Assembly: GCA_965222115.1 (NCBI GenBank)
Contig: CBDCTJ010000003.1
Span: 448,001-512,000 of the forward strand
Origin: Planctomycetota bacterium
GTDB lineage: Bacteria; Planctomycetota; PLA2; JAEUHO01
Reading direction: 5' to 3'
Length of the DNA stretch: 64,000 nucleotides
Made by a program: the position numbers and the translations under genes. Below the pieces are notes generated by a model that ran no database searches, was not told the DNA's origin, and worked only from the letters and a program-made list of their open reading frames with translations. Shown here in pieces: positions 34,037 to 40,634 of this stretch (positions are counted from its first letter, which is position 1; the number at the start of each line of letters is the position of its first letter).

Positions 34037-34357
34037 ATGCTCACTGACCCCGATCCCGATGTGCAAGCGCTTCTGTCGGCCGGGCGCAATGCGGAAGCGC
34101 GCAAAGAGAGGCTCGGAGAGCTCCTCTTTCAGTACCGCGCACGGCTTTTGCGGGTGGTCGAGCTGCGGATGGATCCCGTATTGCGCGCTAGGCTCGGAGC
34201 ATCGGACGTGGTGCAAGATGCGTATGTAGAAATCGCCCGCCGTGTCGATCGCTACCTCAAGGCGCCCACCATGCCCTTTTTCTTGTGGGCGCGCTTCATC
34301 ACCGTTCAGCGAATCCTGAAGGCGCATCGCTTTCATGTGAGTGCCCAGCAACGAGAC
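34037..34357 (+). pseudogene. Planctomycete-type ECF sigma-70 factor, 3'-truncated at MITE copy 1
   Basis: YRARLLRVVELRMDPVLRARLGASDVVQDAY..MPFFLWARFI..HRFH..AQQRD, then MITE TIR; region 4 absent. Confidence 0.85.
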
Positions 34358-34678
34358 ACGGTGTACGGGCAAAATCCACACTTTTCTTGTCCTTATGGAG
34401 TGCGATGCGCACTCCTCTAGCGACGTGTAGATCATCGATGGAGCGTTCGTGTGAGACCGAAGCACCGGTGGGGTATCGAACTTTTGAGAACTCTTTGCGG
34501 TCGGCATGATGCATAGCTGATCGCAGCGGCAACGGACGCAAACACTGTGGACTGCACACAACAAGTATCATTGCCGATATGTGTGAATTTGCTTCTGACG
34601 CTGTACTCCTGCACACGGCATTCGCGCTGTTGACTGAACGCTGCCCTACGAAAGGTGTGGATTTTGTCCGTACACCGT
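34358..34678. mobile_element. MITE copy 1 (24-bp TIR ACGGTGTACGGRCAAAATCCACAC)
   Basis: TIRs 34358-34381 and 34655-34678 (23/24 complementary); interior homologous to copy 2 but about 90 bp shorter; no transposase. Confidence 0.88.
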
Positions 34679-34680
34679 AT

Positions 34681-34743
34681 GCCCTGGGACTCCTGCAACA
34701 GCGGATGGCAGGCTGGCGGCCATCGTTCGGAGGACTTGAGTGA
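34681..34743 (+). pseudogene. 3' remnant of a SsuC/TauC-type ABC permease
   Basis: ALGLLQQRMAGWRPSFGGLE* overlaps the ATPase start (GTGA); resembles the tail of the intact permease at 48145-49017 (AIFGWIERRLVPW..). Confidence 0.6.
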
Positions 34744-35579: not shown

Positions 35580-36689
35580 CTACGCCTCCGGCAGGACCGT
35601 CAGTAGCAGAGCAGCCATTCGTACATGGAGGACCCGGGCTTCTTCGGCTGTCAGTTCAGACGGGACTCGGTGAACCGATTCGTCGAACAGCTTCAAGAAC
35701 GGACCCACAGCGTCGACGTCCGTGGCGACGTACTTCTGCATGGAGGCCGTTTCTTGCCTGGCAATGAAGCGAATCCTGGCCTTGCGCGTTGGCTTGCCAT
35801 TGCTGAAGTCCTTCGGGTCCGTCGACCAATCCTGAACCTTGTCATCCGGGGAGAGGGTGTGCAGCACGTATCGGAAGAGCTCGCGCAACGAGGCGCCAAC
35901 ATGGCGTGCGACATCCGGCCCGCCCGCGCTCAATGCGGCGGAGGCGCCCTCCCAAAGGCTGACGCACTCCGGATCGAGCGCTGTGAGTCGGTCCACGAGC
36001 ACCACCTCCGTCTGGTCGAGAACGAGCGTGGTCTGCGCTTCGGCATCCTCTTCGAGCTCGGGCTCGCGGTCTTCGCGGGGGAGCGTTACGACTTCGGCAA
36101 GCCGCGAAGCCACAAATCGCTCACGTGCAACGGTCGCGGCTGTCTGCAGCCGCACGTGCGTCTCAAGCGATGCTGCCCCAAGCTCCGCGAGTACGTCCGA
36201 CTCTGCAGCCCAGAGACGACCGAGTTTCGCGTCGATCTGTGTGGCGGCAGCCCAGTCTGACGGGACCAGGCCGCCAATCTTCAGCCCGGCCATCTGATCC
36301 GCGAGGCGAGAAGAGATCGACAGTGACTGCTCGAACGCAGCCAGAACTTTCGCAGACTCCGCCAACGTTGAGGCGTACCCCGGCAGCTTCGGGGTCGTTG
36401 CCTTGGCCAAGGCGTCTAGCTGGCGCTGGGATGCGTTCTGGATCTCCTGGAACTGCTGGCTGACGCGAGTCACGGAACTTGCGACCTCAATCGCCTTGAG
36501 ATTCGGAGCTGACAGCTGCTCCAAGCGCCGGGTCTGCTGGGCGATCTGCTCCACAACGTGCATTGCGCTGGCTGACTTTGCCATCTCCTGCATCGTCGTG
36601 CCAAGAAGGCGGGAGTTCTCGATCATCCTGACAAAGGCCTCGGTGGCGCGCATGTGCGCCATCAGGGCTGAACTGTCGTGCTTAGCCAC
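35580..36689 (-). CDS. Protein with helical low-complexity N-region and C-terminal predicted pPIWI-associating nuclease-like (pP_pnuc_1) domain
   Basis: LWEGASAAL..GPDVARHVGASLRELF..VLHTLSPDD.V..W...NGKPTRKARIRFI; GTG start with GGAG RBS. Confidence 0.65.
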   Translation of the reverse strand: MAKHDSSALMAHMRATEAFVRMIENSRLLGTTMQEMAKSASAMHVVEQIAQQTRRLEQLSAPNLKAIEVASSVTRVSQQFQEIQNASQRQLDALAKATTPKLPGYASTLAESAKVLAAFEQSLSISSRLADQMAGLKIGGLVPSDWAAATQIDAKLGRLWAAESDVLAELGAASLETHVRLQTAATVARERFVASRLAEVVTLPREDREPELEEDAEAQTTLVLDQTEVVLVDRLTALDPECVSLWEGASAALSAGGPDVARHVGASLRELFRYVLHTLSPDDKVQDWSTDPKDFSNGKPTRKARIRFIARQETASMQKYVATDVDAVGPFLKLFDESVHRVPSELTAEEARVLHVRMAALLLTVLPEA

Positions 36690-36845
36690 GGTCTCACTCC
36701 CGGTCCTTGTGCGCCCCCGCACCGGATCATACCGGACGAAATACGGAGATGGGATGAAAAGGCCGGTAGCTCCTCTGTCGCGCAGTCACGGTAAACCGTG
36801 CTGCAAACAATAAACGGGCTCTACGGCCCAGGAGGAGCTACCAGC

Positions 36846-37895
36846 ATGCATAAGCGTATCACCGAAACGATTGGCATCGACTTAGGCGACCGATTCTCTT
36901 GGTATTGTGTCTTAGATCAAGACACGGGGGTTCAGAAGGAAGAAGGCGAGATAGCGACAACGCGCGAATCGTTTCACGAGTTTCTCTCGAAGCACCGAAC
37001 CGCTCGAGTTGTGATGGAGGCGGGAACGCATTCGCCTTGGGCGAGTCGGGTCGTCGAAGGTCGATGTGCTCAGTCGCTAGTCGCGAATCCGCGAGAGCTA
37101 AGCTTTATTTACAGGAACGCTCGCAAGTCCGATCGAACGGATGCCAAGAAGTTGGCTGAAATCGGTCGCTTCGATCCCCAACTACTTGCCCCAATTCGGC
37201 ATCGACCGGAGTCCGCACAACGAGACCTTGCGCTGATTCGTGCACGAGCCGCGCTTGTGTCGTCACGAACCAAGTTGGTGAACTCGCTACGAGGTGTCAT
37301 TAAGAGCATGGGCGGGCGGTTGCGTAAGCAGGCATCAAAATGCATCGGATCGAAGACGCGGGCCGAGATTCCGGAGGAGCTCTGCGATGTGCTCAATCCC
37401 ATTCTCAGTGCAATCGAGCGAATCACTGAGTTGGTAAAGATCTACGACGCAAAGATCGATGAGTTGGCGAAGGAGCGATATCCAGATACACAGTTGCTCA
37501 CTCAGATTCCAGGCGTGGGCAATCTCACGGCACTCGCATTCATGTTGACCGTTCAAGATTGGGCGCGGTTTGAAGACCGCCGAGATGTCGGGGCGTTTCT
37601 CGGGATGGTTCCACGGCGTGATCAATCCGGCCAAATGGACAAGCAGCTACGCATAACGAAGGCTGGGGACCGTATGGTTCGGTCGTTGCTCGTTCAGTGC
37701 GCGCATCACATCCTCGGGCGACTGGGCCCGCCATGCGATCTAAAGTCCCACGGTGAGCGGATCATTGCGCGTGGAGGCGCAGTTGCGAAACGCAAGGCAG
37801 TCATCGCCGTGGCACGCAAGCTCTCCGTGCTCATGCTTGCGCTGTGGCGAACAGGCGAAGAGTACATACCGGTTCGATGCCCAGTGGCTGCCTGA
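36846..37895 (+). CDS. IS110-family DEDD transposase / bridge recombinase
   Basis: IGIDLG, VVMEAG, KSDRTDA (DEDD), IPGVG, FLGMVPRRDQSG (catalytic Ser), AVARKL; RBS AGGAGG. Confidence 0.97.
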   Translation: MHKRITETIGIDLGDRFSWYCVLDQDTGVQKEEGEIATTRESFHEFLSKHRTARVVMEAGTHSPWASRVVEGRCAQSLVANPRELSFIYRNARKSDRTDAKKLAEIGRFDPQLLAPIRHRPESAQRDLALIRARAALVSSRTKLVNSLRGVIKSMGGRLRKQASKCIGSKTRAEIPEELCDVLNPILSAIERITELVKIYDAKIDELAKERYPDTQLLTQIPGVGNLTALAFMLTVQDWARFEDRRDVGAFLGMVPRRDQSGQMDKQLRITKAGDRMVRSLLVQCAHHILGRLGPPCDLKSHGERIIARGGAVAKRKAVIAVARKLSVLMLALWRTGEEYIPVRCPVAA

Positions 37896-37953
37896 ACCTC
37901 GCGCAACAGCTTTAGGCAAGCATTAGAAAGGTCAGTTTCCACGTACCCCAATT

Positions 37954-38101
37954 CGAGTCCGGGTGACTGCGGTGCCCTGACCGACGTATAGCGACGTCGC
38001 TACTGAGTATGCAGCACCCAGACTCGTTCTCGGACCCCACCTTGCACCGGGTCGCATCAACTTCGATCCAACACGAGTGCGCATAGAAGCCTGAATGGGA
38101 C
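37954..38101 (+). ncRNA. Predicted bridge/seek RNA core (target-binding and donor-binding loops)
   Basis: Stem 37954-37965/38015-38026 enclosing an 11x11 internal loop; second loop with cccacct (38036-38042) and catagaag (38082-38089) matching the IS circle junction. Confidence 0.75.
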
Positions 38102-38726
38102 GTGTTTTCTGGCGCCAGTGACGATGGCTGGCAATTTGATTCGCTCCGATCCGCTGCCAGAAAGGCAAGGGCGATAAGGGTAAGTTGCGTACTCAAGGGG
38201 CCGAACTACACATGCACAACGCGGTAAATGCGCTCGCCGACGCGGCTTCGCACTTGACATGCCAGGCCTTTTCATAGAAGTACGGGAAAAATCCACACTT
38301 TTCTTGTCCTTTAGGTGCGCCATGCACGCTCCTCTAGCGACGTGCAGTTCATCGATGAATTGTTCGGTCGAGATAGACGTCGCAGATGGGGCACCAAACT
38401 CTCAAGCTCTCTTTGCGCTGGGCAAGCCAGTCGAATTCGATCGCCAGCATGCCTCATGGTCATTGCAATGATCCTACTTCGTCACGTCGACATAGTCACT
38501 CGGCACGATCGGAATGACGCATAGCAGATCGCAGCGGCAACGGACGCAAACACTGTAGACTGTACACAACAAGTATCGTTGCCAATAAGTGTGAATTTGC
38601 TTCTGACGCTGTTCTCCTGCACGCAGCATTCGCGCTGTTGACTGAGCGCTGCCCTACGACAAGTGTGGATTTTTCCCGTACACCGTATTCTTGCGGAACG
38701 CGGTGCGGCGCTAGGCCACGGAGTGG

Positions 38727-39947
38727 TCAGCAGGCGATCTCCGAGACGGTCAGATTGCCTTTACCGTCACGGCAGAAGATCGTGGTGTCTCCGTCCGTGG
38801 AGACCACAAGGCCGAAAGAGTCCGAAACGCGGCTTGTCGCACATGCGATCGACTTGTGTCTCGTCCCCTTCTTGCGCGACTCCAAGAACTCCCGGACCCC
38901 AGGCGGTAGGTCGGGGTATGCATCCTCCGCAAGCAGCTTGCTGCCGACACCCAGGGGACGGAGCATGGGTCCGAGAACCACTGCCCCGTCGATGCGCGTC
39001 GCGTGGCAGAGACGCACGACCTCGTCGTCAGCCATTCGCGCCGACGTCAGCATGTGCTGGGTGTACGGATGCTTCAGTGCTGGCGGCGGCGCCGGAGGAT
39101 CGGCGGGGTCGATAGCACGGCACGCGAGCGACTCCTGCAACCCCCCCGACCAGTCATCGCCGGCCGACTTCAAGGCGTTTGCCTGGTCTACACACTTCAG
39201 TTCGTCGAGCGACGCGGCGCAGGTGACCAGTACCCCGGCGCCGCCGCCGAGTCTCCTTGCCGACCGCGCTAACTTGAGCAGGGACTGTCCCAAGCCATGA
39301 GCGATGCCAAGCAGCAACGGTGCGTCGGCACGCACGACCCAGTCGGCCTGTTCTTCCGCAGTGAACAGACTCCTATGCAGGTCGCCGGCGCGGAGTTGAA
39401 CATCCCAGCTGGAAATCAGCAGGTATGCGGGCGGGATCACCGTCCCCACTTCGATTAAGGTGGCTGGGCGTCGGCACGCCGTCTTCAGGAAGACAGCTTC
39501 ACCGTCGGCGTTCTTGACATACAGCTCCGCGACGTCCCGCAGCTCTACGACACAGCCCGCTCCCCACTCGAAGGCATGGCCACTCACGAAGTTCGCAACT
39601 TGACGGGAGACGATGCCACGGACACGAAGCCCATCGTTGCTCCCTTCGATGACGAATGCCGTCTCCCACGGATCGAAAGCCGAGCCGACTTTGCGAAGCC
39701 AGTCCACTGAAACGGAGGGCTTCTGCGAGAACTCGACGAGCAAGTTCAGTGTGGCGTCGGCGGGAAGCAGGAGAAACGACCCGCACGGCACGCGCCCCTC
39801 TTCCCGGTAGAGCCCGGTCTCGTAGAGCAGATCAAGCAACTCGGTCGTCGCGGGAGGCCACGGCAAGCGGTCACTTTCAGCGAGATGCTCTTGCGCCGCG
39901 TCGAGTAGTGACGACGCGTCAAAGCGCCGATAGCCTGCAGTAGCCAT
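38727..39947 (-). CDS. Diadenylate-cyclase (DisA_N/DAC) domain protein with DACNV-type N-terminal sensor
   Basis: LYETGLYREEGR N-motif; IDGAVVL and GTRHKS..VVSTDG DAC motifs; RBS GGAGG. Confidence 0.8.
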   Translation of the reverse strand: MATAGYRRFDASSLLDAAQEHLAESDRLPWPPATTELLDLLYETGLYREEGRVPCGSFLLLPADATLNLLVEFSQKPSVSVDWLRKVGSAFDPWETAFVIEGSNDGLRVRGIVSRQVANFVSGHAFEWGAGCVVELRDVAELYVKNADGEAVFLKTACRRPATLIEVGTVIPPAYLLISSWDVQLRAGDLHRSLFTAEEQADWVVRADAPLLLGIAHGLGQSLLKLARSARRLGGGAGVLVTCAASLDELKCVDQANALKSAGDDWSGGLQESLACRAIDPADPPAPPPALKHPYTQHMLTSARMADDEVVRLCHATRIDGAVVLGPMLRPLGVGSKLLAEDAYPDLPPGVREFLESRKKGTRHKSIACATSRVSDSFGLVVSTDGDTTIFCRDGKGNLTVSEIAC

Positions 39948-40029: not shown

Positions 40030-40079
40030 CGTTTCTTCCCACCAAGTAAGTGACTCTAGACCTATGCGCATTCAGAGAT

Positions 40080-40585
40080 TCGGTGTGCGGGCGAAGTCCA
40101 CACGTTCTGTATTGCTCGGCGAAGTCAGAGGCATCTTGCCCACACGAAATGAGTGGAGGATCGGGGAAGAGTCGGAACTTCTGTGTAAGGCATGTCGTCC
40201 GATCCAAAGCCGAGAGAATGCACCGTGGCTCAACGTAAAGAAGAGCGAGCCCGTAGGCGTTACTGGTTCGAGCCCAGTAACGCACACCAACGAGTTCTCC
40301 TCCTTCTTAGCAATAGCCCAACTCACGCCATACTGGAGCCCCCCAAAATGGCAAGTTCCATGCTGCGACAAAACACGTGACCGCTTCTCAGCCACTTTGG
40401 CTGCCGAGCCGCCAACAGCTTGCGTCGACGGACTAATCTTTGGTCATTCAAATGGTGGGCTAATTTGTGGTGCGTATCAAGTCGTGTCGAATTGCCTCGG
40501 ACTGTCAAGGAAACGCTGCACTAGGCGTCCGCCCTGGTGACTGTGCGCTGTCCTACTAAAGGTGTGGATTCTGCCCGTGAACCGT
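40080..40585. mobile_element. MITE-family copy 3 (degenerate TIRs, different interior containing a tRNA-Val fragment)
   Basis: Left tcggtgtgcgggcgaagtccacac; right gactgtgcgctgtcctactaaaggtgtggattctgcccgtgaaccgt matches the right ends of copies 1 and 2. Confidence 0.7.
40244..40289 (+). repeat. Degenerate distal copy of the tRNA-Val 3' end (att-like)
   Basis: agcgagcccgtaggcgttactggttcgagcccagtaacgcacacca vs 23946-23991 (4 mismatches in 46). Confidence 0.85.
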
Positions 40586-40634
40586 ATCTTCAGAGCAATG
40601 AACACCGTTTTCGCATCCCGAAGCAAACTGTAGA

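Follow-up and report, generated by a model that had tools for sequence, protein, structure and literature searches.

Positions 37952 to 38103 of the DNA analysed here most probably encode the bridge RNA, or long seekRNA, of an IS1111-type insertion sequence that spans positions 36747 to 38280 on the same strand, a reading to which we give a probability of about 0.85. The sequence comes from a Planctomycetota bacterium (PLA2; JAEUHO01; assembly GCA_965222115.1, contig CBDCTJ010000003.1, 448,001-512,000, forward strand); these 64,000 nt are called the window, and coordinates are window positions unless they carry a G000:C prefix. The reading is carried by the anatomy of the element, by an RNA structure that is conserved and covaries among related elements, and by guide sequences that covary in those relatives with the flanking host DNA and with the element ends.

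The limits of the element were established from three full copies in the genome, copy A in the window and copies B and C on contig 7, which are 98-100% identical, align to the element ends and diverge beyond them when compared together with their flanks. The ends defined in this way are AG|atgggatgaaaaggcc at 36747 and ggccttttcatagaAG at 38280. The AG dinucleotide, found in the window at 36747-48 and 38279-80, occurs at either end of all three copies, and joining the flanks of copy A restores one copy of a repeat. This arrangement, insertion without target duplication and with one core dinucleotide shared by both junctions, is that of IS1111 elements. Inside the ends, a left subterminal inverted repeat (atgaaaaggcc, 36754-36764, + strand) is the exact reverse complement of a right one (ggccttttcat, 38265-38275, + strand), and its 11 bp fall within the 7-17 bp described for the IS1111 group (PMC11208160). 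The transposase gene (36846-37895, + strand) encodes a 349-residue protein of the DEDD/IS110 family in which Pfam domains PF01548 (E 3.8e-18, 66.2 bits) and PF02371 (E 4.1e-22, 78.8 bits) both score above their curated cut-offs, and its reading frame is open in all three full copies. A length of 330-350 residues and a GL-P----S/TG motif are given as marks of the IS1111 group (PMC11187229); the window protein lies within this range, and its GMVPRRDQSG fits the motif with M replacing L. Non-coding DNA amounts to 385 nt on the 3′ side of the gene (37896-38280) and 99 nt on the 5′ side (36747-36845), with the longer region downstream as in other IS1111 elements. The element is therefore a member of the IS110 family, of IS1111 type, by its DEDD transposase, subterminal repeats, AG ends, and long 3′ non-coding region. 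Among annotated plasmid proteins, the best plasmid-borne IS110-family match to the transposase reaches no more than 34% identity.

The right end of the element also carries TTGACA (38254-38259, + strand), an outward-facing hexamer that resembles a -35 box, and most of the relatives listed have a TTGAC-like hexamer at a similar distance from their terminus. On circularisation, this hexamer would stand 17 nt from GAAGAT across the junction and could form a candidate junction promoter. Junction promoters are known for the IS1111/IS110 family. A promoter scan of 36600-38400 found no sigma-70-like promoter. The RNA is separated from the right end by a spacer (38104-38253) of approximately 170 nt, compared with 43-96 nt in most relatives, and most of the differences between copies fall within this spacer. 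It also contains a terminator-like hairpin 3′ of the RNA, at 38114-32, which is a weak call (3 such hairpins found and 1.3 expected).

The RNA gene itself, in its long form with both loops (37952-38103, + strand), was delimited with a covariance model that we call R1. Its first part is a target-binding stem-loop (37954-38026), with a basal stem of 37955-70 and 38011-25 and an inner hairpin at 37982-99. In the basal stem, cgagtccgggtg (37954-65) pairs with cacccagactcg (38015-26) at 11 of 12 positions, with one C.A opposition, and ctgc (37967-70) with gcag (38011-14) also closes the loop. The interior of this first loop consists of a 5′ side (37972-81), the hairpin cgacgt (37982-87) with acgtcg (37994-99), and a 3′ side, ctactgagtat (38000-10). 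The second loop presents cccacct (38036-42) and catagaag (38082-89) on either side of a donor-loop stem (38044-38080, helices 6 and 7), in which gcac (38044-47) pairs with gtgc (38077-80) around a variable hairpin at 38049-69. All of the strings quoted for 37954-38101 in a preliminary description of this DNA are found at the positions given there. A short helix closes the whole RNA, as TTC/GAA in the window and as CCC/GGG or GCC/GGC in relatives, and because it brackets both loops the donor loop forms part of a three-way junction.

Conservation of this structure was assessed by comparison with other genomes. A single-protein search of genome contigs gave no confirmed relative. Relatives were sought in 40 genomes of the same order (the class-level scope comprises the same 40) and in 401 genomes of the phylum, and these searches found transposases with 42-64% identity. 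A common scaffold can be seen by eye in the regions 3′ of their genes. Fuzzy motif anchors (GACTGCG and GAGTGCG) were too similar to each other to be of use and gave way to a covariance model. R1, with 29 pairs, was built from 11 relatives, and matches 35 of the 37 sources searched, full length and always 3′ of the transposase gene; the two that it misses are a gene fragment (L026) and L035. Within the window R1 has one match, full length and on the + strand (133.9 bits, E 1e-30), and in the genome it finds five copies of the RNA gene. In Rfam, no match was found for 36000-39000 at E values up to 1, which shows only that no curated model reaches this RNA.

In an alignment of 30 distinct rows (A2), whose pair counts lean towards structure because it was fitted to R1, 96.1% of 839 pair cells are paired compared with 78.6% in shuffles, both partners vary in 21 of 29 pairs, and none of 500 shuffles reaches any of five measures. 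Slid controls of the same alignment pair at only 28-47%. The bias of A2 is partly offset by RNAalifold on a plain, structure-free MAFFT alignment of the 11 relatives, which predicts the loop-1 helices and gives compensatory changes in 13 of 27 pairs. Helices 2 to 5, in loop 1, are 93-99% paired with compensatory changes; in the donor loop, helix 6 is 99% paired and nearly invariant, and helix 7 is 91% paired with four of its five pairs changing on both sides. Approximately 35 G.U cells in A2 are compatible with the + strand alone. RNAalifold also proposed an alternative hairpin, TCGG/CCGG around the right donor guide, which had little support and was kept out of the model. The single-sequence fold is weak (z -0.79; z -1.79 with 12 of 200 shuffles equally good). 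The comparative evidence thus argues strongly that 37952-38103 is a structured RNA, although the fold of the single sequence is unconvincing. Such a folded and conserved RNA, located in the longer non-coding end and read from the gene strand, is a mark of bridge and seekRNAs. For 93% of IS1111 elements, Durrant et al. predicted a bridge RNA in the right end (PMC11208160).

The register of the guides in the window copy is that of the relatives. The right target guide (37972-37980) is GTGCCCTGA, with CC next to it at the core position, and is complementary to TCAGGGCAC. The left target guide TACTG and the core AG (38001-38007) occupy a register that is fixed in relatives, and they are followed by a handshake-guide position (38008-38009) that reads TA in the window and AT in most relatives, in which it tracks the left end. 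Together, the target guides specify cTACTG-AG-TCAGGGCAC; the ideal target CTACTG-AG-TCAGGG proposed in the preliminary description is upheld by the family register and extended to TCAGGGCAC. The effective left guide is 5 nt, with the first of six pre-core bases mismatched in most relatives. In the donor loop, the right donor guide CCCACCT (38036-38042) is complementary at six of seven positions to the left end AGATGGG, and the left donor guide CATAGAAG (38082-38089) is identical to the last eight bases of the element (38273-80). The earlier counts for these two segments, 6/7 for cccacct against the reverse complement of AGatggg and 8/8 for catagaag, are correct, as is that of 5/7 for ccctgac against the reverse complement of Gtacggg in the right target.

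Covariation of guides with flanking DNA was measured in relatives whose right ends were located by the guide 7-mer in the context of a subterminal repeat and TTGAC, and whose left ends were located by the reverse complement of the right repeat. Duplicate RNAs (L022, L025, L023, L045, and L043) and copies from the same genome were left out, as were both ends of L032 and L040, where the contig was too short or the end was not found, and the left ends of L015, L018, L033, L034, and L038. L039, with just 5 flank bases, was excluded from the right-flank test, and L016, L017, and L027, with an uncertain register or left end, from the left-flank test. The right guide agrees with the reverse complement of its own right flank at a mean of 6.42 of 8 positions, compared with 4.23 for other loci (n=24), and the left guide agrees with its own left flank at 4.24 of 6, compared with 1.79 for others (n=17); none of 20,000 permutations reached either value. 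Left guides score 5/6 in 12 of 17 relatives, with the miss usually at the first base, and poor fits are found in L014 and L028 (2/6), L029 (3/6), and L031 (1/6). The target loop therefore follows its flanks across relatives, and in copies of the window element it does so only in part. The dinucleotide after the right guide follows the core as its complement: it is CT, complementary to AG, in 12 of 24 relatives, GT in two with an AC core, and CG in one with a CG core.

The two bases after the left guide and core behave differently from a target guide, as in 14 of 17 relatives they are identical to the dinucleotide that starts the left end, and in none of the 17 do they match the right flank. 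IS621 has handshake guides that this post-core dinucleotide mirrors (PMC11208158). The match of 8/9 between tactgagta and the joined flanks tacggag+ta, noted previously, stands as a count, but the post-core bases track the donor end in relatives, and the match is better read as four of five guide bases plus the core. A second handshake position, in the donor loop and compared with the right flank of the target, agreed by eye in only about 3 of 14 relatives and was dropped.

The donor guide and the right end vary together, through ATAGAAG, ATACAAG, ATGGAAG, and ATAGAAC, and in 22 of 24 relatives the donor 7-mer is the same as the final seven bases of the element; the remaining two relatives have a single mismatch each. 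This test is partly circular because the guide 7-mer was used to find the right end, and for its independence it leans on the flanking subterminal repeat and TTGAC context. On the other side, the right donor guide changes jointly with the left end in L012 and L029. In both loops the right guide, which is complementary to the top strand, comes before the left guide, an order that the preliminary description had recognized and that Siddiquee et al. (2024) describe for IS1111 seekRNAs (PMC11187229). That description had proposed a bridge or seek RNA with a target and a donor loop, and had named a covariance model and guide-target covariation across IS1111 3′ ends among the means of checking it; both support it.

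From these observations we infer how the RNA would be expressed, bind protein, and direct recombination. It would be made from the + strand, with or after the transposase message, and the DEDD transposase is its expected partner. In loop 1, the 5′ side (GUGCCCUGA) would pair with the top strand on the right of an AG, and the 3′ side (UACUG-AG) with the bottom strand to the left of the same AG. Loop 2 would read the junction of the excised circle, where CCCACCU would pair with the left end of the element and CAUAGAAG with the bottom strand at its right end, and recombination at the shared AG would insert the circle and leave the target unduplicated. The natural target is a dispersed 27-nt repeat, represented in the window by an inverted end of a MITE-like element.

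This repeat was recognized at the insertion site of copy A, where the joined flanks AATACGGAG^TACGGGAAAAATCCACAC make up one copy. Its consensus is GATACGGTGTACGGGCAAAATCCACAC, it has the form GATACGG(T/A)G^TACGGGCAAAATCCACAC at the insertion point, and 33 intact copies with at most 6 mismatches are found genome-wide, with TG (24), CG (4), AG (4), or TT (1) as the insertion-point dinucleotide. In the window, the left part of the interrupted target repeat (AATACGGAG, 36740-36748, + strand) completes the repeat when joined with 38281-98. The remainder of the MITE-like element, whose left inverted end was hit, follows at 38281-38689 (+ strand); its right inverted end is at 38663-89, the inverted repeat copy G000:C3:486689(-). 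The interrupted MITE-like element, of approximately 420 bp, has a paralogue at 34355-34681, and the inverted pairs of the repeat in the window are 34355-34681, 40077-40588, and the interrupted 36740-48 + 38281-38689. Copies outside these three inverted pairs are solitary, many of them in same-strand clusters. Seven copies lie in G000:C7:2273529-2284329 and six in C7:641871-669590. The suggestion in the preliminary description that a MITE terminal inverted repeat is a near-cognate target therefore describes the site in the window, with 9 of 15 guide positions matched, but not the repeat as a whole, which is mostly solitary.

In this genome the guides are poor predictors of the insertion sites. 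Sites A and C each match the guides at 9 of 15 positions, a score that 1,572 of 445,534 AG sites equal or exceed (top 0.35%), and site B matches at 5 of 15, an ordinary score. Separated by side, site A has 4/6 on the left and 5/9 on the right, site C 3/6 and 6/9, and site B 4/6 and 1/9; on the effective 5-nt guide, the left side of site C scores 2/5. A perfect guide-specified site is absent from the 445,534 AG sites of the genome, the best of which reaches 12/15, and none of the 241 AG sites that outscore A and C was seen to hold a copy. The TCAGGGCAC sequence matches variants of the repeat at 7-8 of 9 positions, and TACTG occurs in one repeat copy. The variant ATACTG-TG-TCAGGGCC gives a much better guide fit with the wrong core, and the variant ATACCG-AG-TCAGGGCG gives a much better guide fit with the right core and is unoccupied. 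The element sits in two of six repeat copies with an AG core, when copy B is counted as one, and in none of 29 other copies. Copy B (G000:C7:506861-508423, L002) is flanked by GATACCGAG|...|GGCAAAATCCACAC; its repeat is 4 bases shorter at the right junction than any other repeat copy, and its right flank as it stands has no guide fit at all. If the missing bases were TCAG, as in the unoccupied AG-core variant, few sites in the genome would have fitted better than the original site of copy B. Overall, the guides are only near-cognate to the target here: they fit rare variants of the repeat best, so that the resident copies are in near-cognate sites. Copy C (L003) has a (GTCCAC)n hexamer run on one side and a (GGGTAAC)n-like heptamer run on the other.

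Partial forms of the element are found at several places in the genome. Copy C is followed by two tandem 323-bp units equivalent to 37958-38280 (G000:C7:2359812-2360468, L003), joined as catagaAG|tccgggtg, and each unit starts inside the 5′ basal stem of the RNA and contains a 5′-clipped RNA gene that R1 detects with 114.7 bits. The outer flank of this array, AG|tccgggtaac, is almost identical to an internal site of the 5′ basal stem, ttcgAG|tccgggtgac. Two solo right-end fragments on contig 1 (G000:C1:602195-602388, L006, and 603929-604122, L007) correspond to 38090-38280 (191 bp) with 94-96% identity; they begin exactly where the internal copy of the right-end octamer stops, and are flanked by a repeat-like gatacc(a)AG on the left and by ccgcgtttttt. 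A simple reading is that the recombinase may sometimes use guide-encoding DNA as a pseudo-end or pseudo-target. Diverged left-end remnants with 83-88% identity and the left flank gataccgAG are present at G000:C1:600989-601153 (L008) and 617015-617101 (L009), and a related left end also occurs in contigs from runs X1 and X3. Besides the lineage of the full copies, the genome seems to contain a second and older one. DNA-type contigs from four runs of one study confirm the known junctions, and contained no empty site or circle junction, although contigs cannot show absence. In a second sample of this study (run X4), a left junction ...gatacca and a right junction ccgggtattttccc are both absent from the assembly, which hints at further insertion sites.

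A natural swap of the handshake, together with self-targeting of the DNA that encodes the guides, would be an extension of the bridge-RNA reading that we consider doubtful. The TA of the window fits the target, AG^TA, and not the donor, AG^AT. In IS621 a target-type handshake arrangement hinders insertion (PMC11208158), and a swap, if real, would by the IS621 rules disfavour insertion and favour excision at the repeat. The octamer at 38082-89, a copy of the right end, and ttcgAG^tccgggt (37952-64), which resembles the target of site C, may themselves act as pseudo-ends or pseudo-targets, so that the machinery would cut its own RNA gene and produce the 191-bp solo fragments and the 323-bp tandem arrays, the latter holding extra 5′-clipped RNA genes. 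Self-targeting of this kind, if real, would be an intrinsic cost or a regulator of bridge-RNA elements.

A bridge RNA active in this genome has to be weighed against the view that the RNA gene is genuine by descent but belongs to a decaying or attenuated relic, with target guides and handshake that have drifted from the repeat and with copies that represent old events, off-target events, or homologous rearrangements instead of current RNA-guided insertion. All three full copies are in imperfect sites (9, 5, and 9 of 15), the handshake is TA and not the AT of the family, four AG-core repeat copies are unoccupied, and the partial copies and solo fragments show aberrant recombination, as a relic would predict. 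However, the transposase frames of the three copies are all open, and the five RNA copies are identical over 152 nt whereas elsewhere in the element the copies differ by about 2%. The RNA scaffold scores as high as those of relatives (133.9 bits), repeat variants that resemble the guides exist in the genome, and the second-sample junctions missing from the assembly suggest recent movement. On balance, we think it improbable that the system is a relic. It is very improbable that the stretch acts as a DNA or ordinary messenger feature, such as a site bound by the transposase, or a 3′ stabiliser or terminator of the transposase message, with flank and end matches as by-products of terminal repeats: the donor guide is a second copy of the right end, the terminator-like hairpin lies nearby, and the single-sequence fold is weak, but compensatory changes in four helices together with the G.U pairs argue for a folded RNA from the + strand, the variable loop sequences follow flanking host DNA that lies outside the element and varies by genome, and an equivalent RNA is needed for transposition in related IS1111 elements (PMC11187229).

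Read as a bridge RNA, the locus is a new example, from a little-sampled lineage, of an RNA-guided system first described in 2024, and only the unusual handshake dinucleotide and the self-directed rearrangements go beyond what was expected; the known picture of bridge and seekRNA systems is unchanged. Work is under way to turn such RNAs into programmable tools for recombination, and their mechanism has been studied mostly in IS621 and in a small number of enterobacterial elements. The present locus and its relatives contribute a clade from a bacterial class of which few genomes have been sampled (40 species genomes at class level), and about two dozen natural triplets of RNA, target, and donor. 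They also give a simple rule set, with an 8-9 nt right guide followed by the complement of the core on the right side, and a 5-nt left guide, the core, and a 2-nt handshake position on the left side. Finally, they illustrate what an element may do in a host that lacks a perfect site: it lands in near-cognate repeat copies with the right core, and it appears to rearrange at sequences inside its own RNA gene.

Among known systems, the window RNA resembles the seekRNAs of ISEc11, ISPa11, ISKpn4, and ISPst6, as these are published, in its position in a non-coding region downstream of the gene, in the subterminal inverted repeats of its element, and in having the segment complementary to the top strand 5′ of that complementary to the bottom strand (PMC11187229). 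Long seekRNA forms are given as 148-172 nt and short forms as 82-96 nt (PMC13604230); the window RNA, with 152 nt, falls within the former, and its loop-1 hairpin, with 73 nt, is near the latter. In contrast to those elements, it has a different repeat as its target.

Like IS4321 and IS5075, which are IS1111-family elements that insert into the inverted ends of Tn21-type transposons, the window element inserts into the terminal inverted repeat of another mobile element; the flanks of IS4321 (L052) are what we take to be a Tn21-type inverted end. With filters off, R1 gives a full-length match in IS4321, carried on a plasmid of E. coli, at 78 nt beyond the stop codon (20.1 bits, E 3e-4), in which the aligned donor guide ATAGATTC equals the IS4321 right end; the guide order of IS4321, on our reading of this match, would be that of the window RNA. 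A Phenylobacterium element has a weaker match at the corresponding position (E 0.043), and on a Klebsiella element R1 found nothing 3′ of the gene with filters off. IS4321 and IS5075 differ from the window element in their transposases, each 28% identical to that of the window, in the weak model score, and in their core and subterminal repeats.

The 323-bp and 191-bp forms recall ISPpu9 and MITEPpu9, in which AG-bounded sub-modules are likewise found alone and in tandem (Pares-Guillen et al, 2025; PMC12288879). As described there, the ISPpu9 breaks lie at duplicated end boxes, whereas those of the window element are inside the RNA gene, in the 5′ basal stem and after the donor-guide octamer, and in contrast to ISPpu9 no modular circles were observed for its 323-bp and 191-bp modules.

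The likeness to the IS621 bridge RNA is one of layout. Both RNAs have two internal loops, each with two guides for opposite strands that flank a 2-nt core (PMC11208160; PMC11208158), and in both a 2-nt handshake next to the core tracks the other DNA partner (PMC11208158). Read on the CT-core strand, the guide layout of the window RNA would equal that of IS621. Unlike IS621, the window element carries its RNA in the right end and not the left, has an AG core on the gene strand, and possesses long subterminal repeats, and the closing helix of its RNA brackets both loops, with the donor loop placed in a three-way junction.
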